Assembly: GCA_018818965.1 (NCBI GenBank)
Contig: JAHJQX010000024.1
Coordinates: 6,105 to 70,104 of the forward strand
Reading direction: 5' to 3'
Source: Patescibacteria group bacterium
Lineage (GTDB): Bacteria; Patescibacteriota; JABMPQ01
DNA: 64,000 nucleotides
Position numbers and translations under genes: made by a program. The notes under the pieces are model-generated. The model was given only the letters and a program-made list of their open reading frames with translations, did no database searches and had not been told where the DNA came from. The stretch's first letter is position 1; the number at the start of each line of letters is the position of its first letter. Positions 12,111-46,565 of this stretch are shown in pieces.

Positions 12111-14888
12111 TTACTTGTCCTGAAGCCATTCCCAGGCGTGAGTGACAACTTGAGCTTTAGGGCAGTATTCTACCTGAGAAGTAGGCAAATTTTTAATAAA
12201 TTCTGCCCCGTATCGGGCTGTTTCCACCCGGTTATCCAAAACGATAAACACCCCCCGATCATCAACGCTTTTTATCAATTGTTGAAAAACTTGGCGCCAT
12301 TTCAATAACGCTTCTGGCAAAGCTGATTGCTGGAAAGCATTTTGACCACCTTGGCTACGCGCCGTAGTGAGAGGATCAGAGAAAAATCCAAAGGGCAGTT
12401 TATGGATAATCAGACAGGCTAATTTTTCTGAGGGAATCTCATTTTTTAATAAAAATTCGTGGGTGACTATTAGAACAGCCTGGTCTTGGTGAAAATATTC
12501 TTGCTTAACTTTATCTTCTCCTCCCGAAATGCCTAATCCCAACACCTTGATGCTCTTTTCCTTCAAAGGCAAAGCTAAATCGGTAAATATTTTTCTGACG
12601 GCCGCTCTACTACCACAAGATATAATTGTTTTCCCTTTCAATTTTGTAGCCATACCCATAACAATTCGTTGTAGATCTTGATGAAAACCGGGCTGGTTAT
12701 GACCAACAATATCAGTGGGCACAATGACCTTGGCCTGCTGGTCATACTGGTAAGGAGCAGCAATGTCATGCTGATTATATTCCTCACCTAGCCCTAAACG
12801 CTCGCGAAAATAATCGGTGTTCGTCTGGTTATTAAAGACCGAAGAAACAAAACTAACTGAGCCCGATTTCGCTAACAAATTGCTCTGCAGAAAATCGCCC
12901 ACCTGCTGGGGTGACAGTGAGAGTTGCAAATAGTTATTGTTCAAGCTCAGCCAAGCCACCTCGTTCGCCTCCGGTTGCAATATTATTTTCTCTAGTTCCT
13001 TGGTCGTATCGTAAAGATCCTGATAAGCACCAGATAGATCACAGTGGATTTCTTGAGCTGATTTTTGCTTCAGGGAGACTAATAATTTATCAAGTTGAGC
13101 CAAAAAAGCATACATGTCTACAATATAATTCTGGCCTGCTTGCTTTACCCGATCCCATTCCGGATACTGCCGCACATCAATATCGAGAGTCAAAGTGAAA
13201 TAGTCACCCCCCACGGCTAAATCCTGTTTCTGCTGGCTAGCAAAGATGCCCAAGACACCGAAAAACAAAGTTGTCTTGTCTTTAATTTTGGTTGCTTGTC
13301 TTATCAGCGCCGCCACTTGGCTCTTAGTAACTTTCTTGAGAAGTGCTTTTCTAGGAATTAGCTGCAAGAACCCCGGATCGTGATCCAACCAAGAAAGCTT
13401 CCTGGTGATACTATTTTCACTCAGCTGGAAACTCAAATAATGGGTAAACTGCTTTTCTAACTCTTGGGCTTCGTCGAAAATTACGTTTTTTATACGCAAA
13501 GATTTTCCTTCGGCAGCTAAAGCAGTGTGATTAAATATTACTACGTCCGATTTCTGCGCTTTTTGAAAAGCATTATAGTAAAAACAATCTTGGTAGTAAG
13601 AACAATTCTTCTGCAAACAGTATTTGACGTCACAATTAACCTGCTCTTCCACCCGATAATCTTCATAGCTCCAAGCCATTTCGGTAAAAAGGCCGAATTG
13701 GGCAATGTCTAGCCAAAGTAGCAGCTTGGCTAAAGCCTCCATCTGGGCAGTCGATAGTTCTGGCTTGTTTTTGAATTGCTCGAAACGCCGTCGACACAAA
13801 TATTTCCGCCGGTCTTCTAGCAAAGCCGGGGTGAAATTGAAGGGGGTAATGTTTTGAACTATTTCCGCTTCCTCGGTAGATAATTGTTTCTGCAAAGAAA
13901 AAGGACTGACAGAAATCGCTACCGATTGGCTGGTCTTTTTCGCCTGAGCCTGATAGGCAGCAGCAACTAGATAGGCTAAATATCGACCAACCCCTGGCCC
14001 AGCGTTAATAATTGACTGTTTGCTACCCGTGAAATCTTTTACTAGCTGCTGCAACAACGCTACTTGGCTTGGTCGGAACTCATAGTTGGTGATGATTTTT
14101 TTTAGCTGCTCTTTCTTTTTAAATAGGGCTTCGATCTCTGTCAGACCTACTCTGCGCTGATCGGTCTTTTTCGGAGTGGTTTTGGGCTTAGCTATTACCT
14201 TACTCTTTTTCTCTTTCTCGCCCCGACGTGCCGATAAAACCTGTTTGAAAACAGCTGCTAACCCCCAATCATGTTTGACCGCATACCTATTAATTTCCTG
14301 CAGAACGCCATAATTTACTTCGTAGATTCTCTTAACTAGTCGCAAAAAAAGATCCTTACTAGCCAAGACATCATCTAAAGCTCGATGACTTTCGATGTGC
14401 TTGATCTTGAGATAATTTGTCAGGACTTCCAAGCTATGAGAAGACAGCTCTGGCACCAACATAGTAGCCAGCTTCCAAGTATCATAGCGAGGGTTAGTCA
14501 ATTCTACTCCTTTACCCGCCAGAAAATTAATATCAAAATTAATATTATGGCCAACGATCGGGTGCTTACCGATAAATTTAACTAAATCATCTTTGACGTC
14601 GGCAAAGGGAGGTGCTTCAACTACCTGTTTGTCCACAATACCCGTAATCGCTGAGACAATGGCCGGAATTTTACCACTCGGCTTAGTCAAAAATTGAAAC
14701 TCCGCCAATACCTTATCACCTTTGAACTTAGCAGCCGCTACTTCAATAATGTCACCGCGGTTAGGCGTGAGATCGGTGGTTTCCAGATCGAGGGCAACGC
14801 AAGTTTTGGGAAAAGTTAGTTTCATGGGTGTCATGGTAGCAGGGTTTGGAGAGGGAGACAAATAAAAAAAGCTTCTTGTTATCATCAA
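12111..14888 (-). CDS. dinG: DinG-family ATP-dependent helicase with N-terminal DnaQ-like 3'-5' exonuclease domain
   Basis: 925 aa. N-terminal DEDDh exonuclease motifs (ALDLETTDL, GHNINFDINFL, HRALDD). Helicase motifs are divergent Walker A (NAGPGVGRY), DEAQ box (IFDEAQELE), an Fe-S Cys cluster (C..C…C..C) and motif VI-like (FIVLDNR). Confidence 0.8.
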   Translation of the reverse strand: MMITRSFFYLSPSPNPATMTPMKLTFPKTCVALDLETTDLTPNRGDIIEVAAAKFKGDKVLAEFQFLTKPSGKIPAIVSAITGIVDKQVVEAPPFADVKDDLVKFIGKHPIVGHNINFDINFLAGKGVELTNPRYDTWKLATMLVPELSSHSLEVLTNYLKIKHIESHRALDDVLASKDLFLRLVKRIYEVNYGVLQEINRYAVKHDWGLAAVFKQVLSARRGEKEKKSKVIAKPKTTPKKTDQRRVGLTEIEALFKKKEQLKKIITNYEFRPSQVALLQQLVKDFTGSKQSIINAGPGVGRYLAYLVAAAYQAQAKKTSQSVAISVSPFSLQKQLSTEEAEIVQNITPFNFTPALLEDRRKYLCRRRFEQFKNKPELSTAQMEALAKLLLWLDIAQFGLFTEMAWSYEDYRVEEQVNCDVKYCLQKNCSYYQDCFYYNAFQKAQKSDVVIFNHTALAAEGKSLRIKNVIFDEAQELEKQFTHYLSFQLSENSITRKLSWLDHDPGFLQLIPRKALLKKVTKSQVAALIRQATKIKDKTTLFFGVLGIFASQQKQDLAVGGDYFTLTLDIDVRQYPEWDRVKQAGQNYIVDMYAFLAQLDKLLVSLKQKSAQEIHCDLSGAYQDLYDTTKELEKIILQPEANEVAWLSLNNNYLQLSLSPQQVGDFLQSNLLAKSGSVSFVSSVFNNQTNTDYFRERLGLGEEYNQHDIAAPYQYDQQAKVIVPTDIVGHNQPGFHQDLQRIVMGMATKLKGKTIISCGSRAAVRKIFTDLALPLKEKSIKVLGLGISGGEDKVKQEYFHQDQAVLIVTHEFLLKNEIPSEKLACLIIHKLPFGFFSDPLTTARSQGGQNAFQQSALPEALLKWRQVFQQLIKSVDDRGVFIVLDNRVETARYGAEFIKNLPTSQVEYCPKAQVVTHAWEWLQDK

Positions 14889-17464: not shown

Positions 17465-17848
17465 ATGTCTGTCCGTCTACGCAAGGTCAATCGCCTTGTC
17501 CAACAAGAATTAGGTAAAATAATCAACGAGGAGATGGAACTTCCAGCCGGAGTACTCGTTACTATTGCCAGTGTCCAAACTTCCGTTGACCTCAAACACG
17601 CCACGATTAACATTACCGTTACCCCCAAAGTCAAAACCCCCTCTACTCTCCGCCAGCTAAAACAAAATATCCACCACCTACAAAAATCCCTTAACAAAAG
17701 ATTGGTTCTGCGCTATGTTCCTAAGATTTGCTTTGCACTGGATATAGTACAAGATAAGCTAGATCGAGTAGAAGAACTCCTGCGCCAAGCACGCACAGAT
17801 AATACCAATACATGTTCAGTAAAGTTGAAATCCAAAGAAACCGATTAA
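17465..17848 (+). CDS. rbfA: Ribosome-binding factor A
   Basis: 127 aa with an RbfA-like N-terminus (RVNRLVQQELGKIINEE…). Conserved position after infB. Confidence 0.8.
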   Translation: MSVRLRKVNRLVQQELGKIINEEMELPAGVLVTIASVQTSVDLKHATINITVTPKVKTPSTLRQLKQNIHHLQKSLNKRLVLRYVPKICFALDIVQDKLDRVEELLRQARTDNTNTCSVKLKSKETD

Positions 17849-18786
17849 AATATCTCCTAAAGAAGAGTGATAACTTTTTTATTATCGGTCACGTCAAGCC
17901 GGACGGTGATTCGATTGGCAGCACGCTGGCACTCACTATTGCTCTAACTAGGCTAGGGAAAAATGTTACTCCCGCCTGTGCTGATAAACTGCCTAACCGT
18001 TATGACTTCTTACCTCAATCCCAAATCATAAAAAAACCAAGCGACGTTACCGCAGCTTTAACCAGCGCCAACATTTTGATTGTCGTTGACTGCGGGAGCT
18101 TCCACCTGGCGGGAATCGAAAATTTACAAAGCAACCGGCCATTACCTCTACTTATCAACATTGACCACCACCACGATAACCCCCGCTACGGTACAATTAA
18201 TTTAGTGGAAGATAAACGTTCCTCAACAGCTGAGATAGTCTATGACATTATTAAGATGCTCGAAGTGGAAATTGACGAGCAGATTGCCACTTGTATCCTC
18301 AATGGCATTTTCGTTGATACCGATAGTTTCAAAAACCCTAATACTTCGATCAAAACCCTGCGCATTACTTCCGATCTTCTATCACGGGGAGCCGATTTGG
18401 CTCAAATTACCAGCAGTAATCTCAAGGATAAATCACTCTCCACTCTTAAACTGTGGGGAATTACCCTGGCTCGCATCAAGAAAAATAAACGCCTTGGTAT
18501 TATTTCTACCGCTGTTACCAACAAGGATTTAAAAAGATGTAACGCTACTTATGACGACCTGGAAGGCATTTCTAATTTCCTAAACAGCGTCCCCGACGCC
18601 AAAACATCACTCGTATTATCCGAAAGAAGCGATAATGAGATCAAAGGTAGTCTGCGCACTCTCCACGATAATATTGATGTATCTAAGTTAGCTGCTACAC
18701 TAGGAGGGGGAGGACATAAAAAAGCAGCTGGATTCTCTATCTCCGGCCGGATCGCCAATGAAGGAGGAAAATGGCGGATAGTTTAG
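17812..18786 (+). CDS. nrnA: DHH/DHHA1 phosphoesterase (NrnA-like oligoribonuclease/pAp phosphatase)
   Basis: Motifs GHVKPDGDSIGS, DCGS, NIDHHHDN, and C-terminal DHHA1 GGGGHKKAAG. Confidence 0.75.
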   Translation: MFSKVEIQRNRLKYLLKKSDNFFIIGHVKPDGDSIGSTLALTIALTRLGKNVTPACADKLPNRYDFLPQSQIIKKPSDVTAALTSANILIVVDCGSFHLAGIENLQSNRPLPLLINIDHHHDNPRYGTINLVEDKRSSTAEIVYDIIKMLEVEIDEQIATCILNGIFVDTDSFKNPNTSIKTLRITSDLLSRGADLAQITSSNLKDKSLSTLKLWGITLARIKKNKRLGIISTAVTNKDLKRCNATYDDLEGISNFLNSVPDAKTSLVLSERSDNEIKGSLRTLHDNIDVSKLAATLGGGGHKKAAGFSISGRIANEGGKWRIV

Positions 18787-19900: not shown

Positions 19901-20704
19901 GTGATCAATCTGACCGGTTCAATTATTAGCGGCCTCAAAGCCTACTTTAGTAATCTATCTTGGATAGATTACTTCCTGACCTTCTTGGATATTGTCTTGG
20001 TGGCAGCTATTGTTTATCTGGTTCTTGTTTTTATTAAAGGTACCCGCGCTAGCCGCATTATTTACGGAATTGTGTTGTTAGCCTTAATCTTTGTTCTTGG
20101 CCGTGTTTTAGATCTTAAAACGCTTAATTGGTCACTCAAACACATCGCCACCCTGATCATTGTAGCCATCCCAGTAGTATTCCAGCCCGAACTGCGTCGT
20201 GCTTTGGAAAAATTGGGTCGTAGTCGCTTCTTTAAAGAAGTGCTGACCCGAAAACAAGTAGGGAAAATAATTAACGAGATCATTAAAACCGCCCGTATTC
20301 TACAGAAAAACAAGGTTGGCGCTCTTATCGTGATCAAAAGACAAACCGGGCTAGATGATTTTATCGAAAGTGGAACTACCATTGACGCTGAGCTTTCCAA
20401 CGAATTATTACTAAATTTGTTTTTCCCCAACTCTCCTCTCCATGACGGAGCGGTGATTATTAAAGAGGGACGCGTGGCTGCCGCTGGTTGTATGCTACCT
20501 CTCTCTCAGGGGGAATATTCTTACACACACGGTACGCGTCACCGCGCTGCCTTAGGTATTACCGAAGAAACAGATGCGATCGCTATCGTGATTTCCGAAG
20601 AAAGAGGAGCTATCTCTCTTAGTCATAACGGTAAACTACTTGAAAACATAAACGAAGAAGATTTAGAGAAAAAACTACTTGAACTATTAAAGGAAACGCC
20701 ATAA
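19901..20704 (+). CDS. cdaA: Diadenylate cyclase CdaA (DisA_N / DAC domain), 3 TM N-terminus, GTG start
   Basis: Motifs DGA (HDGAVII) and RHRAALGITEETDAIAIVISEERG. Confidence 0.85.
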   Translation: MINLTGSIISGLKAYFSNLSWIDYFLTFLDIVLVAAIVYLVLVFIKGTRASRIIYGIVLLALIFVLGRVLDLKTLNWSLKHIATLIIVAIPVVFQPELRRALEKLGRSRFFKEVLTRKQVGKIINEIIKTARILQKNKVGALIVIKRQTGLDDFIESGTTIDAELSNELLLNLFFPNSPLHDGAVIIKEGRVAAAGCMLPLSQGEYSYTHGTRHRAALGITEETDAIAIVISEERGAISLSHNGKLLENINEEDLEKKLLELLKETP

Positions 20705-20706
20705 GA

Positions 20707-21912
20707 ATGCCCAATATTCTTTCCAAAAACCTACCCCTTAAATTACTGGCTATTGTTGCGGCTGTTTTTCTGTGGTTTTACGTGATCAATGAAGGTTACG
20801 AAGTTGGTTTTGTTGATGCCGAGATACCAATTGAAACTTACAATTTAGCTGAAGATCTAGCGGTAGCTAGTGAACTGGGCACTGCTAAAATTAAAGTACG
20901 AGCGCCCGCTCAAAGCTGGTCAAAAATATCCTCCGAGAACATTACTGCTTTTGTTGACTTAAAAGGCATCCGCAAAGGGATTTTCTCCAAAGAAGTAAAG
21001 GTATCAGTTGATGATCCTTCTATCACCATTCTCGACGTCGATCCCGAAAAAATCGGTGTCACTCTCGAAGAGCTACAAACCCTGAGCAAAGAAATAGAAG
21101 TTGAGACAACCGGTAACGTAAATGAAGCTTATGAAACTCAAGATCCTACTGTCAGCCCCAATAAAGTAGAGATCAAAGGATCCCAAACCAGCATCGAGAA
21201 AGTTAACAAGATAGTGGCACCCGTCACTCTCAACGGCGAAATGACAGAAATTAAAACTCAAGTGGAATTAGAAGCTCGCGACAGTAATAACCAAAAAATT
21301 ACCAATTTAGTCATCATTCCTAAAATTGCTGAGATCACTATCCCAATTAGAAAGCAAAACGAAATAAAAACGGTTGGTATTAAAGCAAATATTATCGGCA
21401 ACCCGGCTAGTGGTTACTGGGTCAAGGAAACAACCATTACTCCCAATTCGGTGGCGGTGCAGGGGAATGCTGATACTATTAGCGATTTATCATATTTGAA
21501 CACCCAAAAAATAGATATATCCAATATTACTACTACGACCGAAAAAAGTATTGCCCTCGATTTGCCAAATGAGGTAACAACAATAGACACCAACCAAGTT
21601 ACAGTCAAAATCGAGGTAGAAGCACAAACTATCAGTAAGACAGCAACCGCTACCCCCCGCTATACTGGTCTAGCAGCTGATTTGCGAGTGGCTTTAGCTT
21701 CACCGAGTACAGTTTCGGTACAAGTCACAGGACCGGCTCCTAAGCTCAATGCCCTCAAAGAAGGAGAGATTGCTGCTACTATTAATCTGAGTGGTAAAAG
21801 TTCGGGCAGCTACACCATGCCTATCTCAAATAATATGATTTCTCTACCAACTGACATTTCTTTGAAGAGTCTTGACACTAAGGAAATTCAGATTATTATA
21901 CAGGGAAAATAA
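20707..21912 (+). CDS. cdaR: YbbR-domain protein CdaR (CdaA regulator)
   Basis: N-terminal TM followed by repeated YbbR-like beta modules. The cdaA-cdaR gene order is conserved. Confidence 0.65.
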   Translation: MPNILSKNLPLKLLAIVAAVFLWFYVINEGYEVGFVDAEIPIETYNLAEDLAVASELGTAKIKVRAPAQSWSKISSENITAFVDLKGIRKGIFSKEVKVSVDDPSITILDVDPEKIGVTLEELQTLSKEIEVETTGNVNEAYETQDPTVSPNKVEIKGSQTSIEKVNKIVAPVTLNGEMTEIKTQVELEARDSNNQKITNLVIIPKIAEITIPIRKQNEIKTVGIKANIIGNPASGYWVKETTITPNSVAVQGNADTISDLSYLNTQKIDISNITTTTEKSIALDLPNEVTTIDTNQVTVKIEVEAQTISKTATATPRYTGLAADLRVALASPSTVSVQVTGPAPKLNALKEGEIAATINLSGKSSGSYTMPISNNMISLPTDISLKSLDTKEIQIIIQGK

Positions 21913-22150: not shown

Positions 22151-25100
22151 TTAATTTTCTTTCCCCTCTCGAATCCAGGTGACTGCTACTACCGTTGTTG
22201 CTACCACTAGCAACGCCAGTAAAGCTATCCAATAAAGAGTAGTACTGTCCGTTTTTGTCGTTCCACTTTGTTTCTCGGCACTATTAACTACAAAGCGAGC
22301 AATCTCTACTTTCTCGCTCAAATCACCCTCCAAATCCTGTGACTGCGCCAACACTTTGTGCTCGCCTGGCTCAAACGTCTGCGGATTGACAGCTACTTCC
22401 CAAATACCGTCTTTGTCAGCGGTAGTAGTTGTCTTCAAATTTATTTCACTGTGGATGAAAATTGTGACTTTGTGGCCAGCACCTGTCTTGCCCCGCAAAG
22501 CTAGATCCTCGCCCAGATCTACCGAATATTTTTTGCTAAAATCATCCACTCGGGCTGAACCAATATGAGTGATAGTAGGTGGTGATACCTGATCTTCCTC
22601 GGTTTCGCTGAGAACTTCCAGCGGAGTAACCGCCACTGTGTCTGGCTTGCTTTCTTCTTGCGAGGAAGTGATGACAGTGGGGGTACCGCCATAATAATCT
22701 GAGGTTGTAGTTGTAGTCACCGTTTTCACACCCTCTTCTTCCGTTTCGGTTATTTCCGGGCTAGCAGCAAAGTAGCCAAAATTCACCCCATCTTTTGCTT
22801 GGTCATCACTTGCTAGCTCAACTACCTTGGCGCTGGCACTAGTGGTTAATTGATATCCCGCTGGAACACTACTCACCACCAAATAACGCTTGGCTGATAA
22901 ACCACCAAAGCTATAATCGCCGTTGGCGTCGGTAGTGCTAGTGGTGACATAAAAGTCAGAATCTTCATCTAAAGCTTCATTATCATTAGAATCTTCATAA
23001 AGTTTTACCTTAACGCCAACCAATCCACTTTCGTCAGCATCACGGCTGCCATTTTGGCTACCATCCTCCCAAACTAAGCCTCTGATCTTACCAGTCGGCT
23101 CGCTTTCTATTAAAGCATCCTCAGCTAAGCTCACCCCAAAGTCAATATTAGAATACTCTTGTCCCTCTTCTATCTTTATTATTTGTGGATTATTGTCAGT
23201 GGTTACCGTCGAATCCGTAGCCGGCAAAGTAGATTTCTCTAATTGAACAATGTAGGTATCGGCCGATAGGTTGTTATAAACATAGCGGCCAGATGAGTCG
23301 GTCTCAACTTCCTTGGTTAAAGTATCGCTACTTGTTTCTAATGATCCGCTATCATCAGTATCCTGATAAAGTTTTATCTTGACTTGCTCAACACCTTTTT
23401 CATCTTGATCCTTATTTTTGTCACCATTATTATCATACCAAACTATACCCTTTATAGTGCTAGTAGCGAGAGAGGTTGTTTCCTCCTGTACTGGATTAGT
23501 TACTTGGTTACTAGCTTGTACCCCAGCACTTTCGCTAAAAACTACATCAGCAACATTAATCACTTTACTGCCTTCTGGGATATTAACTACTTTAACCCGG
23601 AAAACTACATAACCACTACTGCCGGGTAAAATATCGCCTAATTTAAACTTTATTTTATTATTGCTATAGTTGACTGCGTCAGAATCATTGGCGTCAGTTT
23701 GAGAATTACCATTAAACCCGGCTGAACCTTCAATGTAAGTAGCGCCTGCCGGGATACTGTCGGCAATGTTAAAATTGGTAGCCTTGGCTTTGCCTTTATT
23801 GCTGTAGTCAACACGGTAGGTCAGCTCGTCCCCTACTCTCACCTCTTGGCCATCGTCCTTGTAGGGCGAGGGATTTTCCTGGTAGTAGCGAACCACTCCC
23901 GCTGCCGCGGCTGCCAAACCACCAATCAGTAAAACGGCGACTAAAGTCTTAGTACGGCCACCTTTCACTTTGGTGGCTACCCCCACACCCCGATCACCGG
24001 CTGGCAAATTAGAATCTAAATCATATAAGATAAGCTGGGAGATTGAATTTTTTCTTGGCGCTAGCTGTCGATTGTTGCGACTCATCACTGCACTCAAACG
24101 CCGTGGCTCCTTTAACAGTAAAATGAGAATTATTAGCGTTGCCAGGGCTGCCAGTGAATATAAGTACTGGGTAAAATTTCCAGAACTGCTTCCCAAGCCC
24201 CCCAAAAGATAAGGCAAGCCGGAACTACTACCTGCATTTTCATTGATCTCAACCGTCTTGGCTACTCCGATGTCCGGATTTTTACCTGTGACGACGACAA
24301 AAGTTTGGGTAGCAGACCAACCGCTCTCAGCTCCTTCATCATCCTTAGTCTTTACCCGATAGTAATATTGAAAATTGTCATCCAAGTCTTGCGGAACAGT
24401 CAGGCGAGTAACACTTGGCTGGGTAGAAAATATGGTGGCGCTATCGAATTTACTATTATCATCGAGTTGCACCAGATAGCTTAATTTATCAGTCGAGTCG
24501 GCTTTATCCGGATCGGAAGCCGCACCCCAATAGATAGTTGGCTTAAGAACTTTAACTTCTCCCCCCTGATGAGGGTTGAACCCGGACTGTGGTGCCTGGG
24601 GAGCAATATTATTTTTATCTAAAACAATGCGTTGCACTGATGAATAGCCAGATTGGGCGTTATGATTATCTACTGTCCTTACTCGCCAGTGATATTTAAT
24701 GCCATCTGATAAATTTTGGAAATTGTCCAACTGACTAATTTGGATCTCAGTTGCTTTGACCCCTGTGGTAGTTGAATCTATTGATTGAAACCCAGCGTTG
24801 TCATCTAATTCTACTACATAAGTAAGGCTGTCCTCAGTATCAACATCAGTCGCCTGGCTCCATTTTAGTTTATCTTGATCAGTTAATTTTTTATCGTTCT
24901 CCGGCGACAAAGTGGCCGGAGGATTAGGGTAACGGTTATATTCAACCGTCACCTTATCCAGAACTGGCACAGATGCTACTGTTTCAGTACTAAAACTAGC
25001 TTTGTATTGCAGATAACGATCAGGGGGAGACTGCACTTTTTCCCCGGCCTTCCCATATTTTTTACTCCAAGCCGACCAATTAGTGCCGTCAGTGGAAGTC

Positions 25101-25909
25101 CTGGTCTGTAAATTCAATTCTGTACCCGTGGGATTACTACCTGACCAGTTAATTTTTTCAAAACTAGCTACCGGATGTGTACCTAGATCTAAAACTGGCG
25201 AGGTATAATTCGACTGGTCGGATAAAAAGGCGATATAATCAATTTGGGTTTTGCCTCTGACTAGAAAGCCATACACTCGATTAATCTTGTTACCTGGTTG
25301 CAACTTATCTAAGTCTTTCTCTAAATCTCTGGTTATGGTATACCACTGGCCGTCATTTACGCCCTCAATCTCGTAAGTAAGATAACCCTTATTATTATTG
25401 TTGGATACTCCCTCTTTCCCCGGCTTGTATTGAAGATAACGGTGCCCATCAGTGGTAAAAACAGAAACATACAAGCGAAAATCTTTACTAAGATGACGTG
25501 CTTTCCATTGGATAGTGTACGGTCCTAAATGGTTAGCTGGATATATAAAACCAGTGCCTACCCCATCGCCCGGGTCAGTGCTAGTTAAATCAATAATGCG
25601 ACTATTCAATCCCGCATCGAGCACATTGGCTACTGCCCCCGGTGGCTGATTGTCATATACTTTCCAACCGACAGTATCTCCATCTTCAGCGTCTTCATAC
25701 GTTACTCCATCAACTAATTTCACCTGATCTTTTTTGATTTCCAAGTCAGGATTATCAGTTGAGCCTTGATTAAAATCAGCTTGAGTCGCTTGTTCCCAAG
25801 TACCAGCTTCCACTAAAAAAGGGACTAACAATAAAAGTCCCAAGGCAACAGAGATAGTAGCTAAAACCTCCCAAAGACTCCGGCTGGTAAAAATTTTTAC
25901 TTTTCCCAT
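22151..25909 (-). CDS. Giant surface/adhesin-like protein (1252 aa) with multiple TM segments, DUF11-like, SdrD-B/Cna-B-like repeats and a C-terminal membrane anchor
   Basis: N-terminal signal/TM. Two approximately 100-aa tandem repeats (…LSYLVQLDDN…YYYRVKTKDDEG…). Two internal TM helices around residues 565-590 and 650-672. A conserved-repeat (DUF11)-like segment (GDELTYRVDYSNKGKAKA). Two Asp-rich SdrD-B-like domains (DTDDSGSLE…YVYNNLSADTY; DSNDNEALD…YSFGGLSAKRY). A Thr-rich linker, then a C-terminal TM (IALLALLVVATTVVAVTWI). Confidence 0.7.
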   Translation of the reverse strand: MGKVKIFTSRSLWEVLATISVALGLLLLVPFLVEAGTWEQATQADFNQGSTDNPDLEIKKDQVKLVDGVTYEDAEDGDTVGWKVYDNQPPGAVANVLDAGLNSRIIDLTSTDPGDGVGTGFIYPANHLGPYTIQWKARHLSKDFRLYVSVFTTDGHRYLQYKPGKEGVSNNNNKGYLTYEIEGVNDGQWYTITRDLEKDLDKLQPGNKINRVYGFLVRGKTQIDYIAFLSDQSNYTSPVLDLGTHPVASFEKINWSGSNPTGTELNLQTRTSTDGTNWSAWSKKYGKAGEKVQSPPDRYLQYKASFSTETVASVPVLDKVTVEYNRYPNPPATLSPENDKKLTDQDKLKWSQATDVDTEDSLTYVVELDDNAGFQSIDSTTTGVKATEIQISQLDNFQNLSDGIKYHWRVRTVDNHNAQSGYSSVQRIVLDKNNIAPQAPQSGFNPHQGGEVKVLKPTIYWGAASDPDKADSTDKLSYLVQLDDNSKFDSATIFSTQPSVTRLTVPQDLDDNFQYYYRVKTKDDEGAESGWSATQTFVVVTGKNPDIGVAKTVEINENAGSSSGLPYLLGGLGSSSGNFTQYLYSLAALATLIILILLLKEPRRLSAVMSRNNRQLAPRKNSISQLILYDLDSNLPAGDRGVGVATKVKGGRTKTLVAVLLIGGLAAAAAGVVRYYQENPSPYKDDGQEVRVGDELTYRVDYSNKGKAKATNFNIADSIPAGATYIEGSAGFNGNSQTDANDSDAVNYSNNKIKFKLGDILPGSSGYVVFRVKVVNIPEGSKVINVADVVFSESAGVQASNQVTNPVQEETTSLATSTIKGIVWYDNNGDKNKDQDEKGVEQVKIKLYQDTDDSGSLETSSDTLTKEVETDSSGRYVYNNLSADTYIVQLEKSTLPATDSTVTTDNNPQIIKIEEGQEYSNIDFGVSLAEDALIESEPTGKIRGLVWEDGSQNGSRDADESGLVGVKVKLYEDSNDNEALDEDSDFYVTTSTTDANGDYSFGGLSAKRYLVVSSVPAGYQLTTSASAKVVELASDDQAKDGVNFGYFAASPEITETEEEGVKTVTTTTTSDYYGGTPTVITSSQEESKPDTVAVTPLEVLSETEEDQVSPPTITHIGSARVDDFSKKYSVDLGEDLALRGKTGAGHKVTIFIHSEINLKTTTTADKDGIWEVAVNPQTFEPGEHKVLAQSQDLEGDLSEKVEIARFVVNSAEKQSGTTKTDSTTLYWIALLALLVVATTVVAVTWIREGKEN

Positions 25910-26050
25910 GTGATTATCTTCGGATTATTCATTATTATATCATTTCATATTGCGAATGTCAAAGAAAGAAGTCAAGATTCTTTCTGCAGCAAAAGATGGC
26001 TCAATAAAAATATTTATGTTAAAATTCTCTTTAGTCGACTAATAATACAT

Positions 26051-27175
26051 ATGTCTACCACTGAAATAATCATAATCGCAGCTGTTGCCATAGTTGCCTA
26101 TCTTATTTGGACTAATCGTAGCCGATTGGCTCAAGTGACTAAGGGTTTCGGTTCTCGTACTAGTGTCTTAGATTCGTATTCTCGTGACCTAACCGCCCAA
26201 GCTAGAGCAGGCAAGCTCGATCCGGTGATTAACCGTAAAAAAGAAATCACCCGCGTTATCCAAATCCTTTCTCGCCGTACCAAAAACAATCCTATCCTCT
26301 TGGGAGAGGCTGGAGTGGGCAAAACCGCCATTGCCGAAGGATTAGCACAGAAGATTGCTCGCGGAGAAATACCAAGTAGTTTAAAAGACAAGCGAGTATT
26401 AGCTATTAATGTCAGCGGCATGATCGCCGGAACAAAATATCGTGGTGAATTTGAGGGCCGTCTCAAAAAAATCATGGAGGAAATCAGACAAGCCGGGCGG
26501 AAAATAATCCTCTTTATTGATGAGGTGCACGTTCTTCTAGAAGCCAAAGGAGCCGAGGGAGCTATGGATCCGTCTGATATTTTGAAGCCTCCACTCGCCC
26601 GCGGAGACTTACAAGCCATCGGCGCCACTACATACCAAGATTACGAGAAGTACATTAAACCAGACGAAAGCCTAGAAAGACGGTTTCAGCCAGTTATTGT
26701 CAACCCACCTACTATCAAAATGACAATTGAAATACTCAAAGGTATCGCCTCTGTTTACGAAAAACACCACCGAGTTAAATATATGCCGGAAGCATTAAAA
26801 GCTGCAGCTGTACTTTCAGAAAAATATATTAAAAATCGGTTTTTACCAGACAAGGCAATTGATCTAATAGACGAAGCGGCTGCTAAAGTAAGGCTAAAAG
26901 CAGTCAATCTCCCTAATCGGATTGAAAAACTAGAAGCAGAAATTATTAGACTCGACCAAATTCATCAAAACGCTACTAGCAAGAGAAAAAAATCTCTCTT
27001 AGATAAGAAAAAGGTTACCAGAATGAAAAGGGTGGCTGAACTTAATATAGCCCGTGACAAAGATCAGAATGGAACTGAACTACCACCAGTTAACGCCGAT
27101 GATATCAGAGACGTTTTGGCGGACTGGATTGGCCAGCCAAAAAACAAAATTACCAAAACTTTACAAATCAAATAA
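26051..27175 (+). CDS. Membrane-anchored AAA+ protein homologous to ClpB/ClpC D1 only (no Clp_N, no D2)
   Basis: N-terminal TM (TEIIIIAAVAIVAYLIW). Clp D1 signature LDPVINRKKEITRVIQILSRRTKNNPILLGEAGVGKTAI, Walker B ILFIDEVH, sensor-2 region. The gene ends right after the D2-preceding signature (NADDIRDVLADWIGQP). The ORF track's upstream extension to 25910 is judged spurious. Confidence 0.65.
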   Translation: MSTTEIIIIAAVAIVAYLIWTNRSRLAQVTKGFGSRTSVLDSYSRDLTAQARAGKLDPVINRKKEITRVIQILSRRTKNNPILLGEAGVGKTAIAEGLAQKIARGEIPSSLKDKRVLAINVSGMIAGTKYRGEFEGRLKKIMEEIRQAGRKIILFIDEVHVLLEAKGAEGAMDPSDILKPPLARGDLQAIGATTYQDYEKYIKPDESLERRFQPVIVNPPTIKMTIEILKGIASVYEKHHRVKYMPEALKAAAVLSEKYIKNRFLPDKAIDLIDEAAAKVRLKAVNLPNRIEKLEAEIIRLDQIHQNATSKRKKSLLDKKKVTRMKRVAELNIARDKDQNGTELPPVNADDIRDVLADWIGQPKNKITKTLQIK

Positions 27176-27187
27176 GTCTCCTAAATA

Positions 27188-27240
27188 AAAAAGCCTGGGG
27201 GGAAATATTACCTCTACCCGAGGTATTTTTCCTGTCCAGG
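27188..27240 (-). terminator. Hairpin terminator for the convergent genes; the T-run is on the minus strand
   Basis: cctggggggaaatattacctc … gaggtatttttcctgtccagg imperfect long stem. The minus strand continues with cttttttat. Confidence 0.4.
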
Positions 27241-27384
27241 CTCGTAGTACTTCCCTTCCCCGTCTTCACAAACGTACTTCTTCCACCACTGGCGACTGTA
27301 GTAGGACGCCAGACATGCCAGAAAGGCTGGCGTTGTGAAGACAAAACGCACCCATCCCCCCATCGAGGTTCTTGATAGTTCCAT
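27214..27384 (-). CDS. Small membrane protein (56 aa), manually found
   Basis: MELSRTSMGGWVRFVFTTPAFLACLASYYSRQWWKKYVCEDGEGKYYEPGQEKYLG. One hydrophobic helix. Ends inside the terminator hairpin. Below the ORF-track cut-off. Confidence 0.3.
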   Translation of the reverse strand: MELSRTSMGGWVRFVFTTPAFLACLASYYSRQWWKKYVCEDGEGKYYEPGQEKYLG

Positions 27385-27778
27385 TATTAACCCTTTTCCT
27401 CATCGTTTACAGGTGTGAATCCCCCCTCCATCGCCCCCACAAAGAACAAAAGTTCCATGGCTTTCCATCCTACTACAACCATAACACCTGTCAACAGTCT
27501 CAAATTACTGCTAACTAGCCCAAATAAACACCTTGCTTTCTTATTTTTTTCATGCTAAACTCTGGTCAGAAAAATGAAAATATTAAGTAATCATCCCTCT
27601 GAGCTGTAACTCAATCCTGTATCGAAAGTATCAAAATCTTCAGTCTATAAATTCTTCAATGAAATTACAATTCCCCCATTACTCGCCTTCAAATCTTCTT
27701 TGCGGATAATAGATCCGTTGTAATTTCGTGCCCGTTAACAAAGATCCCTCGTCAGATTCTTAGACAGGATCGACTTGT

Positions 27779-35704: not shown

Positions 35705-37438
35705 ATGCTTCTAGATATTAAAAAACTCAAAATAAGTTTAGTTGAGAAGGGTTTAATTAATTCCCACGATTTTGATGTGCTTGTAGCCAAAGCAACCAAA
35801 GAAAAAAAGGAGATTACTGACATATTGCTGTCAGAAAACATCGTTACTGAAGAAAATTTATACCAAGAATTATCCCGCCAAATTAAAATACCTTTCGTTG
35901 ATTTGTCAAAAACTATTATCCGTAAGGATATCTTGTTTCAAATTCCGGAATTAATCGCTAAAAAGCATGAAATTATTGCTTTTTCCGAAGACGAAACTGG
36001 TCTCGGGGTCGCCATGACCAATCCCGAAGATTTACAGACAATAGAGTCCATCAAAAAAAAGGTTGGTAAACACATCGAGCCTTATGTAGCCAGTAAAGGT
36101 GATATTTTTTCGGCTCTCAAACAATATCGTCGCGGACTACGCCAAGAGTTCAAAGATATTATTGATCAAAGTTTGGCCATTTCACGGACTGCAAGTGACG
36201 ATGACCTAGAAAAACTAGCAGAAAATCTCCCTATTGTCCGAATCGTTAATACTTTGATTGACCATGCTATTTTACAAAACGCCAGCGATATCCACATCGA
36301 GCCTCTGGAAAAGAATGTGATCATCAGATTCCGGATAGACGGCATTTTACATGACGTTATTGTTCTACCTAAAGAAATTCTAGCCGGAATTGTCGCGCGT
36401 ATTAAGGTACTAGCTAATTTAAAAATTGACGAACACCGTCTACCGCAAGACGGACGTTTCAAGATAGAAAAAGATGAACAGAAAATTTCTTTCCGGGTTT
36501 CTATTATCCCAATATTCGACGGCGAGAAAGTGGTAACCCGCCTCTTGGTCGAATCAGGGCGTATTTTATCTTTAGAAGAGCTGGGCTTTCAGAGTTCTGC
36601 CCTTGCGATAACCAAAAGAAACGTTAACAAGCCAAACGGCCTTATCTTAGTTACTGGTCCGACTGGTTCTGGTAAAACCACCACTCTCTACTCGATCATG
36701 AATATGCTCAATACGACCGAAGTTAATATTGCCACTATCGAAGATCCCATCGAATATCGAATGCCTCGTATCAACCAAAGTCAGGTTAAGCCTAAAATCG
36801 GTTTTACTTTCTCCACCGGACTGCGGTCTCTAGTGCGTCAAGATCCAGATATTATTATGGTCGGTGAAATCCGCGACGAAGAGACAGTTGAAATGGCTAT
36901 TCATTCAGCCCTAACTGGTCATTTAGTTCTCTCTACTCTACACACCATGAGTGCTGCCGGGGCTCCTCCTCGTTTGATCGATATGAAAGCCAAGCCTTTT
37001 CTGGTAGCTTCTACTTTGAATCTAATTATCGCTCAACGATTGGTTCGACGTATTTGTAAAAACTGCCGTGAAGAATACAAACTCGATGCAAAAAAGATCG
37101 CCATACTAGAAAAAGAATTTGATATGGAGAAAATAATGCCAGCGTTGTTACAAGAAAAGGTAATTACTGCAAAGAAGCCATTATCTGAACTAACTTTTTA
37201 CCGGGGCAAGGGCTGTGAGCACTGCAATTTGCAGGGTTACAAGGGACGAACAGGAATTTACGAAACATTAGAAACAACCGAAACTATTAAAGACTTAATT
37301 GTAGACTCAGCGCCCACAGAAAAAATTCAAGCTCAGGCTGTGTCCGAAGGGATGATTACTATGCTTCAGGATGGCTTTATCAAAGCTTTATTAGGATTTA
37401 CTACTATTGACGAAATATTACGAGTCACCAAAGAATAA
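35705..37438 (+). CDS. pilB: Type IV pilus assembly ATPase PilB (GspE family)
   Basis: N-terminal T2SSE_N-like domain; Walker A LVTGPTGSGKTTT, Asp box, His box, tetra-Cys (CKNC…CEHC). TATAAT about 60 nt upstream. Confidence 0.85.
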   Translation: MLLDIKKLKISLVEKGLINSHDFDVLVAKATKEKKEITDILLSENIVTEENLYQELSRQIKIPFVDLSKTIIRKDILFQIPELIAKKHEIIAFSEDETGLGVAMTNPEDLQTIESIKKKVGKHIEPYVASKGDIFSALKQYRRGLRQEFKDIIDQSLAISRTASDDDLEKLAENLPIVRIVNTLIDHAILQNASDIHIEPLEKNVIIRFRIDGILHDVIVLPKEILAGIVARIKVLANLKIDEHRLPQDGRFKIEKDEQKISFRVSIIPIFDGEKVVTRLLVESGRILSLEELGFQSSALAITKRNVNKPNGLILVTGPTGSGKTTTLYSIMNMLNTTEVNIATIEDPIEYRMPRINQSQVKPKIGFTFSTGLRSLVRQDPDIIMVGEIRDEETVEMAIHSALTGHLVLSTLHTMSAAGAPPRLIDMKAKPFLVASTLNLIIAQRLVRRICKNCREEYKLDAKKIAILEKEFDMEKIMPALLQEKVITAKKPLSELTFYRGKGCEHCNLQGYKGRTGIYETLETTETIKDLIVDSAPTEKIQAQAVSEGMITMLQDGFIKALLGFTTIDEILRVTKE

Positions 37439-37445
37439 CTAGAAA

Positions 37446-38663
37446 ATGCCTAAATTCACTTACACCGCCCGTGATCAAAAAGGGCAAATAAAAAGGGGGG
37501 TGCTAAACGCAAACAATAAAAGTAGCTTGGCGGAAACTCTGCGTGATCAGGGTTTATTGCTAACCCAGGCAGAATCAGACTCAGATGGAAAAAGAAAAAC
37601 GCATAAAAACACCTCTTCTCTTTTCGGTGGAGTTTCGACTATTGACAAGATAATGTTTACTAAAAATCTGCAGGTGATGATCAAATCGGGACTTTCGATT
37701 CTACGCGCCCTTGATATCCTCAATCGCCAAACAGCTAATAAAAAATTCAAAAAAACTATCGGCGACATTCGCCAGAGCGTAGAGAAAGGGACTGAATTAG
37801 CTAGCAGTTTAAGATCATACCCCAAAATATTTTCTCCCTTTTTCGTTAGTATGATCAAAGTAGGTGAAGTTAGTGGTAAGCTAGAGGACGTATTGGCCGA
37901 ACTAGCTACTCAAATGAAAAAAGATCGTGATCTGATGGTTAAGGTGAGAAGTGCCATGATGTACCCCTCGGTAGTTTTAATGACCATGTTTACAGTAATC
38001 ATTTTAATGCTAGCTTTCGTTCTGCCTAAATTGACTGACATTTTCAAAGACTTCCAGGTAGAATTGCCACTCACTACCAAAATACTAATTGGTTTTTCTG
38101 AGTTAATACAATCCTACGGAATATTCGTCTTGCTGGGAGGAATTATTATTATTATCCTATTCGTCCTTTATTCTCGAACCAAGGGTGGAAGAGAGAAAAT
38201 CCACGCTCTTAACCTACGACTGTTTATTCTTGGTCCCATCCTCAAACAAATTAACCTGGCTCGCTTCTCTCGTACCATGGGCACTCTTTTGCGCAGTGGC
38301 ATCCCAATTGTTGAAGCTCTTAGCATCACTAGTGACGTTCTTGGAAATGTACATTACAAAAAAGTAATGTCAGATGCTGCCAACAAGATTAAAAAAGGAG
38401 TAAAATTAGTCGATATTTTAGAAGAAAGCAAAAAACTATTCCCCCCTCTAACTACTCAGATGGTTATGGTAGGAGAAGAGACCGGCACTTTAGATAATAT
38501 TCTCGAGGAAGTAGCTGATTTCTATGAGGGCGAATTGACCGAGACAATGAATAATCTCTCCTCTATCCTCGAACCAGTACTAATGGTATTATTAGGGTTG
38601 GGAGTAGGTATTGTGGCTGTTTCTATCGTTTCGCCTATTTACTCATTGATGGAAAATTTTTAA
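37446..38663 (+). CDS. pilC: Type IV pilus inner-membrane platform protein PilC (GspF family)
   Basis: 405 aa. Two GspF-like repeats with 3 TM segments. Confidence 0.85.
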   Translation: MPKFTYTARDQKGQIKRGVLNANNKSSLAETLRDQGLLLTQAESDSDGKRKTHKNTSSLFGGVSTIDKIMFTKNLQVMIKSGLSILRALDILNRQTANKKFKKTIGDIRQSVEKGTELASSLRSYPKIFSPFFVSMIKVGEVSGKLEDVLAELATQMKKDRDLMVKVRSAMMYPSVVLMTMFTVIILMLAFVLPKLTDIFKDFQVELPLTTKILIGFSELIQSYGIFVLLGGIIIIILFVLYSRTKGGREKIHALNLRLFILGPILKQINLARFSRTMGTLLRSGIPIVEALSITSDVLGNVHYKKVMSDAANKIKKGVKLVDILEESKKLFPPLTTQMVMVGEETGTLDNILEEVADFYEGELTETMNNLSSILEPVLMVLLGLGVGIVAVSIVSPIYSLMENF

Positions 38664-38675
38664 TAATTTTAAATC

Positions 38676-39995
38676 TTGTACAAAAACCACCGAGACAAGG
38701 GAACAACTCTGATCGAAATTTTAGTAGCCATTACTATTATTGGTATTGTTTTTGTAGCGATCTTCGCCATCTTCCGCATGGTGATCCAAAGCTCTGCCAT
38801 TAGTGAAGCACGCACCACTGCTACCGGCCTCGCTAACCAGCAAATGGAGATGATCCATAATTTACCCTACAACGATATCGCTACCACTAGCGGTTGGCCG
38901 CAGGGTGACATCCCTAGCACCAAAACTGAAGTCCTCAACAACATTACCTTTACTATCAATACTAATGTCAATTACGTTGACAATCCCTTTGATGACACAG
39001 TACCCATCGATACTCTAGGAGCCGACTACAAAAAAGTAAAAGTGGAGGTTTCTTGGGATAAATTTTATAGTGGTACGCCCGTTATTTTACACACTGACAT
39101 TTCATCCCGGGGCATAGAAGAAACCGAACAGCCAGGAGGGGTATTATACATCAAAGTCTTCGACGCTAATAATCAACCGGTAGCCGGAGCTAATATTCAA
39201 GTTGTCAACAATGATCTGAGCCTTAATTTTTCTGATACAACCAATAATGCTGGTGAGAGAGTATTTTACGCTCTCACTCCAGATAGTGGAGCCAATTATG
39301 AAATTCTGGTGACAAAGGGCGGCTACACTACTGACTATACCTCGGAGATTACTCCCGAAATGCCCGATCCCGATAATCCTCACCGTTCTATCTTTGAAGG
39401 ACAAGTGGAAACAGCCAGCTTCACAATTGATATTGTTAGCTCACTGACTATTAACACCCAAGACGATAGTGATCCTCCTTCCTCCCTGGCGAATATACCT
39501 TTGACCATCACCGGAGAAAGACGTTTAGGTCTAGGCAGTGAAAATGAGTTGGTGCCAAGAAATAAGTTCGAAGGACAACAAACTGATGGCTCAGGGCAGT
39601 TAACTTTATCTAATATTGAATGGGATTCATATAACATTACAGAGGAGGATGCCAATTACGATATTGCTGAAATAAACCCTCCCAACCCAACCAATGTCGC
39701 CCCCAATGAGAACCTAACTACTATCCTTACTCTAGTCAGTCACGCTGCTCATACTTTGCGTGTAGTTGTATCAGACAACAACGATAATCCTCTTGCCGAT
39801 ACCAGTGTACGCCTTTATGGTAATGGCTTTGATGAGACAAAGCAGACTAGTGCTGTCGGCCAAGTTTTTTTTACCCCTCTACAACAAGCAACCTATAATC
39901 TAGAAATAACCAAGTCGGGCTATATCAGTTTTTCCGATACAAGCGAAGTAGAAGAGCAAACCGTTAGAGAAGTAGTAATGGCGACACAATCATGA
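38676..39995 (+). CDS. Large prepilin-type N-terminal domain protein (439 aa), minor-pilin/tip-adhesin candidate
   Basis: Class III signal-like DKG|TTLIEILVAITIIGIV with Glu at +5, and an unusual Thr at +1. Long beta-rich C-terminal region including a carboxypeptidase-regulatory-like segment. Confidence 0.55.
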   Translation: MYKNHRDKGTTLIEILVAITIIGIVFVAIFAIFRMVIQSSAISEARTTATGLANQQMEMIHNLPYNDIATTSGWPQGDIPSTKTEVLNNITFTINTNVNYVDNPFDDTVPIDTLGADYKKVKVEVSWDKFYSGTPVILHTDISSRGIEETEQPGGVLYIKVFDANNQPVAGANIQVVNNDLSLNFSDTTNNAGERVFYALTPDSGANYEILVTKGGYTTDYTSEITPEMPDPDNPHRSIFEGQVETASFTIDIVSSLTINTQDDSDPPSSLANIPLTITGERRLGLGSENELVPRNKFEGQQTDGSGQLTLSNIEWDSYNITEEDANYDIAEINPPNPTNVAPNENLTTILTLVSHAAHTLRVVVSDNNDNPLADTSVRLYGNGFDETKQTSAVGQVFFTPLQQATYNLEITKSGYISFSDTSEVEEQTVREVVMATQS

Positions 39996-40615
39996 AGCAG
40001 CTTCAACCCACTAAAAATCGATCGGCCGGTTTTACTATTCTCGAGATGATAATAGTATTTGGAGTTTTTGGGGTGGCTCTTGTTGTCACTACTTCCTACT
40101 TTTGGATGAGTCTGCGAGTGCAAAACAAAAGCGTTAAGCATATTGTGGCGCAAGACAATGCTCGACGAGCCCTGACTGCCATGGCCGGAGAAATCAGAAG
40201 TAATATGTACTCCGACGCTGGTTCTTATCCAATTGAAGTGGCCGAGGGGCAATCGCTTATTTTCTACACCAACATCGATGATGACGTTAACGCCGAAAGG
40301 GTGCGCTATTTTCTCGACGGCACTGACCTAAAACGAGGAGTGATTGAACCTTCGGGACAACCGCCAACCTATTCTAGTGTCAATGAACAAATCAATACCC
40401 TATCTAGTTACAACGCCAATGGGGTAAATGACATTTTTACCTATTATGATCGTGACTACGACGGGACAACTAGTCCCTTACCTTCCCCGGTAAATAAGAG
40501 TAAAATTAGATTGATCAAAATTAATCTTACCATTGACGTTGATAGCAATACCCCACCAGACCCGATCACTGTTACAACCGAAGCCCAACTTAGGAATTTA
40601 AAGGACAATCTATAA
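39992..40615 (+). CDS. Prepilin-type (pseudo)pilin
   Basis: …RSAG|FTILEMIIVFGVFGVALVV canonical G|FTxxE prepilin cleavage motif. 207 aa. Confidence 0.6.
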   Translation: MKQLQPTKNRSAGFTILEMIIVFGVFGVALVVTTSYFWMSLRVQNKSVKHIVAQDNARRALTAMAGEIRSNMYSDAGSYPIEVAEGQSLIFYTNIDDDVNAERVRYFLDGTDLKRGVIEPSGQPPTYSSVNEQINTLSSYNANGVNDIFTYYDRDYDGTTSPLPSPVNKSKIRLIKINLTIDVDSNTPPDPITVTTEAQLRNLKDNL

Positions 40616-40620
40616 ACAAT

Positions 40621-42015: not shown

Positions 42016-42018
42016 CCT

Positions 42019-43101: not shown

Positions 43102-43104
43102 ACT

Positions 43105-43665
43105 ATGATTACTATTAATCTCTTACCAAAAAGATTCAAAAGGAGGGCGGATATAGAAAGAATTAACCTATCTATCGTCGCTATGTTAATCTTGCTTTTT
43201 GTTATTGTTGGTTTGACTATCGAATTATTATTTGCCACTAAAAAATTCCTTAATGCTAATATTGAAACTTTAGAAAGTCAGCAACAGGCCTATGAAGATT
43301 TCTTTACTTCTGATGTCAATAAAGACATCAACGATAAAATAGTAAAAACTAATCAACTAGCTATCCAAGTAGGTAAAATACAGGCCGGCCGAACCAGCTG
43401 GTCAGAACTATTGACTGAATTAGCTATCGTCACCCCTCCCGAAATAAAGCTAACCGATATTCAAAGTAATATACTGAATAAATCTATCACCATCTCAGGA
43501 AGAGCAGAAACTCGTGACCGACTTTTAGACTACAGTAAAAGTTTAGAAAGCTCCGATTATTTTGCTAGTGTAGACTTGCCTTCCTCCTACCTTAGCAGTC
43601 CGACTGATATTTCCTTTGAAATAAAAGCAAATCTGTCTCTAGCTACATCATCAGCTGGAGATTAA
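43105..43665 (+). CDS. pilN: Type IV pilus assembly protein PilN
   Basis: Canonical PilN start INLLP followed by a TM. 186 aa. Position after pilM. Confidence 0.6.
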   Translation: MITINLLPKRFKRRADIERINLSIVAMLILLFVIVGLTIELLFATKKFLNANIETLESQQQAYEDFFTSDVNKDINDKIVKTNQLAIQVGKIQAGRTSWSELLTELAIVTPPEIKLTDIQSNILNKSITISGRAETRDRLLDYSKSLESSDYFASVDLPSSYLSSPTDISFEIKANLSLATSSAGD

Positions 43666-43672
43666 CAAAGTT

Positions 43673-46562: not shown

Positions 46563-46565
46563 AAA

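Follow-up and report, generated by a model that had tools for sequence, protein, structure and literature searches.

The Hsp100/Clp unfoldases are known from textbooks as proteins with two rings. The loop that docks the ClpP protease is located in the second ring (D2), which in two-ring Clp proteins is preceded by the closing helix of the D1 small subdomain. The rings belong to different clades, D1 to the same 'classic' AAA clade as Msp1/ATAD1 and FtsH, and D2 to the HCLR clade. In ClpB and ClpC D1 is the weaker, regulatory motor, structures of both proteins place the N-domain and hence the D1 N-terminus on the substrate-entry face, and in some Hsp100s, such as ClpB, D1 oligomerizes poorly once separated from D2. 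Skd3 (human CLPB), an Hsp100 derivative that works with one ring, has a new N-terminal region with a hydrophobic segment in it, and to our knowledge all single-ring derivatives described so far (Skd3, torsins, and the relatives of ClpX and HslU) retain a D2-type ring. Bacteria are thought to obtain membrane-protein extraction and quality control mainly from FtsH. In the ultra-small Patescibacteria (CPR) the envelope, the giant surface proteins and the host-dependent lifestyle are poorly understood, and literature searches on the architecture discussed here and on ClpP in Patescibacteria yielded no account of a D1-only or membrane-anchored Hsp100 in the CPR.

The 64-kb stretch of patescibacterial DNA analysed here, referred to as the window, encodes a protein in which a single transmembrane (TM) helix is followed by a D1 module and a stop codon. 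All of its parts are known; what is new is their arrangement, a D1-only, membrane-anchored member of the ClpC family that constitutes an undescribed variant.

The gene and its protein

The open reading frame at 26051-27175 of the plus strand (ATG 26051, TAA 27173-27175) encodes 374 amino acids. The reading frame itself, an identical public protein (NCBI MBU1178179.1, 'AAA family ATPase', Patescibacteria group bacterium), the domain matches and an AlphaFold2 model identify it as a complete gene for a TM-anchored, D1-only ClpC-like AAA+ protein. The GC content of the gene, 42.5%, is that of the window. A longer reading of 421 residues from a GTG at 25910 (the JGI call) is unlikely: this start is unsupported, homologs begin with MSTTE or MSVTE, and the extension would cover the 141-bp divergent intergenic region including the promoter of the upstream minus-strand gene.

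Within the 374 residues Pfam recognizes AAA (residues 82-215) and AAA_lid_9 (residues 222-317, E = 2.9e-30) and nothing else; Clp_N/Clp R (PF02861), UVR (PF02151), AAA_2 (PF07724) and ClpB_D2-small (PF10431) gave no Pfam match. In NCBIfam the protein aligns with the D1 part of the ClpB, ClpA, ClpV, ClpG and ClpK models, for example with positions 152-442 of 853 in ClpB (E = 1e-116, 391 bits versus a cutoff of 1232) and 163-448 in ClpA (341 bits versus a cutoff of 993), and all scores lie far under the five equivalog cutoffs, none of which is reached. No curated NCBIfam or Pfam family covers a protein of TM helix and D1 alone as a unit. The closest solved structures are those of S. aureus and B. 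subtilis ClpC (E about 1e-108, about 51% identity in tblastn and Foldseek, 50-52% to ClpC D1). Residues 18/27-370 of the query correspond to residues 141/152-494 of the 810-818 residues of ClpC, the start falling on the N-domain/D1 linker (TPTLDSLARDLT in ClpC, TSVLDSYSRDLT in the 374-residue protein) and the end on the closing helix of the D1 small subdomain (EDIAEVIAGWTGIP in ClpC, DDIRDVLADWIGQP here). Since the alignment covers D1 only and stops at ClpC residue 494, on EDIAEVIAGWTGIP, the protein ends, as judged by alignment, exactly at the D1/D2 boundary of ClpC (around residue 494). The initial annotation had likewise placed the end of the gene at the motif that normally introduces D2 and had proposed this alignment as a check.

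How is the protein built? The features given in the following all lie on the plus strand. The N-terminal TM helix (residues about 2-22, STTEIIIIAAVAIVAYLIWTN, 26054-26116) was recognized by Kyte-Doolittle analysis, residues 1-22 being hydrophobic with a 19-residue mean of 2.17, and by an AlphaFold2 helix at residues 3-21; together with the missing PF02861 match this substantiates the proposal that a TM helix replaces Clp_N. A short, basic and flexible linker (residues 23-37, 26117-26161, with pLDDT below 50 at 28-35) leads to the large alpha/beta subdomain of D1 (residues 38-220, 26162-26710), which is delimited by the Pfam AAA match, the ClpC alignment and Foldseek. This subdomain contains Walker A (GEAGVGKT, residues 85-92, 26303-26326), which is read directly from the sequence and invariant in the family described below. 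It also contains pore loop 1 with the substrate-gripping Tyr130 (GTKYRGEFE, residues 127-135, 26429-26455), assigned by family invariance and by identity to the ClpC motif. Walker B (ILFIDE, residues 153-158, 26507-26524) and the arginine-finger pair R210/R211 within LERRFQ (26678-26683) were assigned by family invariance, and the pair presumably acts in trans as it does in the D1 of ClpB and ClpC. The small, or lid, helices (residues 222-285, 26714-26905) carry LPDKAIDLIDE and rest on the AAA_lid_9 match and the invariant columns 263-275. They are followed by a short two-helix coiled coil at the position of the ClpC M-domain (residues 287-340, 26909-27070; AlphaFold2 helices 287-307 and 311-340), in line with the short coiled coil noted initially, and by the D1 closing helix (residues 345-362, PPVNADDIRDVLADWIGQ, 27083-27136), which aligns to ClpC residues of about 476-494. 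A consensus scan places a terminator-like hairpin (TACCTC-TACCC-GAGGTA, then a T-run) at 27209-27235, 34 nt 3' of the stop codon.

The AlphaFold2 monomer model, built on 30 homologs and with a mean pLDDT of 86.9, shows a helix at residues 3-21, disorder at 28-35, the D1 alpha/beta and lid subdomains, the coil at 287-340 and a last helix at 349-360, and Foldseek superimposes it on the D1 of ClpC and ClpC1 with an rmsd of 2.1-2.6 Å over about 330 columns. The initial annotation had called D1 canonical, which holds for Walker A and B, the pore loop and the arginine pair but not for the sensor-2 it had listed: the conserved element at that place is the lid motif R263-x-LPDKAIDLIDE, and we know of no canonical sensor-2 arginine in Hsp100 D1 modules.

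A D1-only family in Patescibacteria

Is this architecture peculiar to one genome? The initial annotation had suggested looking for D1-only homologs in other CPR genomes. A homology search detected about 50 further protein clusters with a TM helix, D1 and a stop (330-440 residues, 49-79% identity), and all members with a source name are Patescibacteria, that is Parcubacteria, Uhrbacteria or Doudnabacteria. Every complete member carries a hydrophobic helix at its N-terminus (Kyte-Doolittle mean about 1.3-2.9, above 1.6 in nearly all cases; the exceptions are P0027 with 1.58 and P0061 with 1.33) and stops just past the W-x-G helix. An exhaustive profile search of 1.84 billion representatives yielded at least nine distinct 50%-identity clusters of the same architecture among the best 150 matches. 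The highest scorers of this search, P0121-P0124, were rejected as relatives of a new architecture, being chimeric duplicated or spliced D1 fragments; they resemble assembly or gene-call chimeras, and high scores in this representative library can be artefacts. A scan of genome contigs, meant as a taxonomic survey, returned mostly firmicute and cyanobacterial ClpC and two CPR loci only.

A neighbour-joining tree was calculated on 252 core D1 columns of 37 anchored short proteins and 56 two-ring representatives. The 37 anchored proteins form one clade against the two-ring Hsp100s in 93 of 100 bootstraps, and the nearest two-ring relatives are of the ClpC type (Leptospira ClpC, plant ClpC1). On this tree the D1-only family has a single evolutionary origin. 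Moreover, comparison with the 79%-identical homolog gives a dN/dS of 0.064, at a dS close to saturation, and the D1-only form is under strong purifying selection. Which residues are retained? Invariant among 30 members are G85, G88, V89, G90 and K91 of Walker A, the pore loop in its full length of nine residues (G127-T-K-Y130-R-G-E-F-E135), F155-I-D-E158 of Walker B, T194 of sensor-1, both arginines of the R210/R211 pair and, in the lid, the motif R263-x-LPDKAID-x-x-DE. P345 and V347 of the closing helix likewise do not vary, W359 is kept in at least 90% of the members, and positions L84, R150, D176 and K261 set the family apart from two-ring proteins. The least conserved part is the coil at the M-domain position, the element that regulates ClpC and ClpB: its length ranges from 12 to 78 residues across the family, and it is almost deleted in the subclade of 330-341-residue proteins. 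In the lineage of the window it is strongly basic (net charge +6 to +12, and +6 in the 374-residue protein). On these comparisons the gene is intact, under selection and conserved across many Patescibacteria, not broken, and the proposal of a novel truncated, membrane-tethered AAA+ protein is supported by some 50 patescibacterial clusters, their single clade, purifying selection and invariant motifs.

The topology of the anchor was analysed over 36 members. At the N-terminus, the stretch free of charged residues is 23 residues long in the median. The flank before the helix comprises 0-7 residues and on average carries a net charge of -0.3, as against +2.6 for the 12 residues that follow the helix, and the distance from the helix end to the first D1 motif is 17 residues in the median (range 13-35). 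By the positive-inside rule an uncleaved anchor with the N-terminus outside and the C-terminus inside is predicted, which would leave the ATPase in the cytoplasm. As the tether is so short and the D1 N-terminus lies on the entry face in ClpC and ClpB, the entry face of the ring would point to the membrane.

Genomic context and mode of action

D2-like sequence was searched for by tblastn with D2-containing ClpC queries. Such sequence is found neither in the 64-kb window, in any frame, where the only match is D1 itself, nor in about 135 kb around the homologs, in agreement with the original observation that no D2 follows downstream. Furthermore, the surroundings of the ATPase gene, out to about 10 kb, are free of D2-type genes in all eight contexts examined (the window, L001/L002, L003/L004, L005/L006, L007, L010, L011 and L012). 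An 818-residue reading frame at 30994, although of ClpC-like length, encodes a PEP-utilising enzyme and not ClpC. ClpP, FtsH, Lon and other Clp genes or proteases are absent among the 30 largest reading frames of the window, and for membership in a defence system PADLOC returned weak, generic AAA matches only.

An all-against-all comparison of the reading frames within about 10 kb in the same eight contexts detected no conserved neighbour, as no family besides the ATPase is common to more than two lineages; an operon or neighbour that would point to a pathway is thus not conserved in these contexts. Synteny in this comparison is lineage-local only. The 79% relative (L007) keeps the downstream order RNase Y, UvrD-like helicase and PEP-utilising enzyme, and the 65% relative (L001/L002) keeps the divergent giant surface protein upstream. 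Secreted or membrane proteins (CARDB, FG-GAP, CorA, M50-like) are frequent neighbours, a functional hint that is suggestive at most, and an M50-like peptidase is encoded directly downstream of the ATPase in L011 and no more than 7 kb away in L003. In the window the next gene, for RNase Y, begins 600 bp downstream of the ATPase stop, and the gap (27176-27778) contains no convincing gene, no Rfam match and no tRNA; a 56-residue minus-strand reading frame (27214-27384) is also present there. At the same position L007, the closest relative, has a 413-residue minus-strand gene without Pfam domain, of which no trace is left in the gap; similarity to L007, there to the DNA preceding RNase Y, is confined to about the last 70 bp of the gap (27658-27730).

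The window contains a number of other features. The surface protein transcribed divergently from the ATPase gene (22151-25909, minus strand) is a giant of 1252 residues that combines SdrD_B, DUF11/CLIPPER and Ig-like domains with hydrophobic segments at both termini and in the middle; its promoter (25962-25934, minus strand) is a perfect TTGACA-17-TATAAT with extended TG, and a 1278-residue ortholog occupies the same position beside the 65%-identical ATPase. At 19901-21912 (plus strand) the gene for a CdaA-like diadenylate cyclase with a DAC domain precedes that for a CdaR-like protein with four YbbR repeats, an arrangement that resembles an operon for c-di-AMP synthesis, and a DHH/DHHA1 phosphoesterase gene (17812-18786) is located just upstream of the cyclase. 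A type IV pilus cluster (35705-44296, plus strand) encodes a PilB-like T2SSE ATPase with MshEN, a PilC-like T2SSF protein, PilM, a 439-residue pilin-like protein (N_methyl, CarboxypepD_reg, SpaA) and a 464-residue protein without Pfam match. Two tandem DUF3352 paralogs (620 and 558 residues, 44700-48242, minus strand) adjoin PNPase (48254-50335). On the minus strand, 12111-14888 encodes a 925-residue fusion of an N-terminal RNase_T-type exonuclease with a DinG-like helicase C-terminal domain, and 62792-63988, at the window edge, a 398-residue reading frame with a family-A DNA polymerase domain only.

How could a D1 ring act on its own? The best explanation, to which we lean with modest confidence, is a functional stand-alone ATPase derived from ClpC, a hexameric threading ring that faces the membrane and acts as extractase or unfoldase. 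It would descend from a ClpC-type Hsp100 that, in a patescibacterial ancestor, lost Clp_N together with all of D2 and acquired a single TM helix at the N-terminus. The hexameric ring would form on the cytoplasmic face of the membrane and, because the anchor occupies the place of the ClpC N-domain and the tether measures only some 13-17 residues, would turn its substrate-entry face to the bilayer. Tyr130 could then grip the cytoplasmic tails or loops of proteins in or near the membrane, and ATP hydrolysis would pull or unfold them, so that the ring would serve as membrane-protein extractase or unfoldase after the manner of Msp1/ATAD1 or of the AAA ring of FtsH. Docking of ClpP would not be expected since the docking loop belongs to the missing D2; the product would for this reason be released for refolding or handed to other proteases. 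An ATP-driven threading ring would be the most economical reading because the residues for hydrolysis in an oligomer and for gripping a polypeptide are invariant. Arginine fingers matter only in an oligomer, and their invariance lends indirect support to a closed, ATP-hydrolysing ring. In addition, a stand-alone D1 ring is less odd than it seems at first look, as D1 shares the 'classic' clade with Msp1/ATAD1 and FtsH. Points against the explanation are the poor oligomerization of D1 without D2 in some Hsp100s, the lack of a conserved operon pointing to a pathway in the eight contexts, and a regulatory coil that varies and is almost lost in subclades. 'Unfoldase or holdase', the function offered by the initial annotation, is a reading of the sequence, and within it the invariant pore-loop tyrosine and arginine fingers would speak more for an actively threading ATPase than for a passive holdase.

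It could be imagined instead that the protein is half of a split or partnered machine, in which the D1 ring sits on a separate D2-type ring, on FtsH or on an M50/S41 peptidase and is a membrane-tethered entry or regulatory ring rather than an autonomous motor. The exact end at the D1/D2 junction with an intact closing helix means that a stacking surface could persist, and the M50-like peptidase gene directly downstream in one context and within 7 kb in another would provide a candidate partner. However, D2-like sequence is missing from the window and from the 135 kb or so around the homologs, no neighbour is conserved over the eight contexts, the ATPase gene has its own terminator-like signal, and a family that is old, forms one clade and possesses an anchor of its own does not resemble a recent gene fission. 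Both the partnership as such and the role as a non-motor entry ring are, in our judgement, improbable, if deserving of attention. Slightly less probable still is an ATP switch that does not translocate polypeptides, such as a membrane-bound scaffold, holdase or regulator. This would suit the regulatory, weaker-motor role of D1 in ClpB and ClpC, and the basic coil (+6 to +12) might lie on the membrane or bind partners; but the pore loop with Tyr130, both arginine fingers and Walker B are invariant down to 49% identity, a degree of conservation that is hard to explain without hydrolysis-coupled gripping of substrate.

The initial annotation had also allowed for a gene remnant. In this reading the gene is a clpC cut short by an indel around 27.17 kb, be it a true remnant or an error of assembly or sequencing. 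The sole point in favour is that most Hsp100 proteins have two rings. Dozens of independent assemblies have the stop codon at this same place, dN/dS is 0.06, no D2 remnant exists in any frame, and in the 79%-identical relative the downstream DNA is occupied by an unrelated gene on the opposite strand. The conservation data refute this explanation, to which we assign a negligible probability; a D2 half nearby and a lack of conservation, named at the outset as what would refute the observation, were both looked for in vain.

Comparison with known systems

The closest relatives by sequence are the ClpC proteins (B. subtilis, S. aureus ClpC/MecB, Mycobacterium ClpC1), whose D1 is about 50% identical over some 340 residues and has the same fold. 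Common to both are GTKYRGEFE as pore loop, the Walker motifs and arginine fingers, a short coil of two helices in the place of the M-domain, and the helix that closes D1. In contrast to the family, ClpC (about 810-820 residues versus 374 here) possesses Clp_N and a D2 with the ClpP-docking loop, and it is in the place of the N-domain that the family has its TM helix. Among the hallmarks of class I Hsp100/Clp proteins the D1 module is thus present, whereas D2 and Clp_N are absent and the NCBIfam cutoffs are not attained. Those of the ClpC subfamily are missing as well, both the UVR-type M-domain with Phe436 (PF02151 has no match, and the Phe436 position aligns to a basic KRK) and, with D2, the ClpP-docking loop. 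Database entries label members 'AAA family ATPase' or 'ATP-dependent Clp protease ATP-binding subunit'; the latter is probably wrong in function, as without D2 there is no docking loop for ClpP, and it is misleading in that it implies a ClpP partnership which the architecture cannot support. NBD1 of ClpB/Hsp104 is similar as well, as indicated by the ClpB model match and by the solved NBD1 fragments 4HSE and 1JBK, but ClpB/Hsp104 have a long four-helix M-domain and a D2, whereas the coil of the family is short and ClpC-like and D2 is lacking.

The eukaryotic membrane-protein extractases Msp1/ATAD1 resemble the family in architecture only, with an N-terminal TM helix, a short linker, and one classic-type cytosolic AAA ring whose pore faces the membrane. 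The TM helix and a single AAA module predicted to lie in the cytoplasm are found here too, but the sequence does not belong to the Msp1 clade and is not related beyond the AAA fold: all strong PDB matches are Clp/Hsp100 D1 modules, non-Clp AAA proteins appearing at E of about 2e-4 or weaker. The lid and coil are of the Clp type, and extraction would be a likeness by analogy only. FtsH is likewise a bacterial AAA+ ring that has an N-terminal membrane anchor and faces the bilayer, but it differs in its two TM helices, its periplasmic domain and its fused M41 metalloprotease, none of which is found here. The membrane tether suggests an activity in membrane-protein quality control or extraction. 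Going further, the family might be a lineage-specific, autonomous, membrane-bolted D1-only Hsp100 of Patescibacteria. As the bacterial equivalent of Msp1/ATAD1 it would extract or unfold proteins of the membrane and surface, or draw polypeptides inward at the membrane, and it would be the first natural D1-only motor, a proposal that we regard as tentative and on the whole rather doubtful. A conserved natural D1-only ring, if true, would mean that D1 can be a motor alone and would provide a minimal system for D1 mechanics. Skd3 is a precedent for a single AAA+ ring with a new N-terminal region, but its ring is of the D2 type (HCLR clade), it carries ankyrin repeats and it resides in the mitochondrial intermembrane space, whereas the family described here is of the D1 type and bacterial. 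The D1-only ring would therein be the mirror image of the D2-only Skd3 and possibly a bacterial analogue of the membrane-protein extractases.
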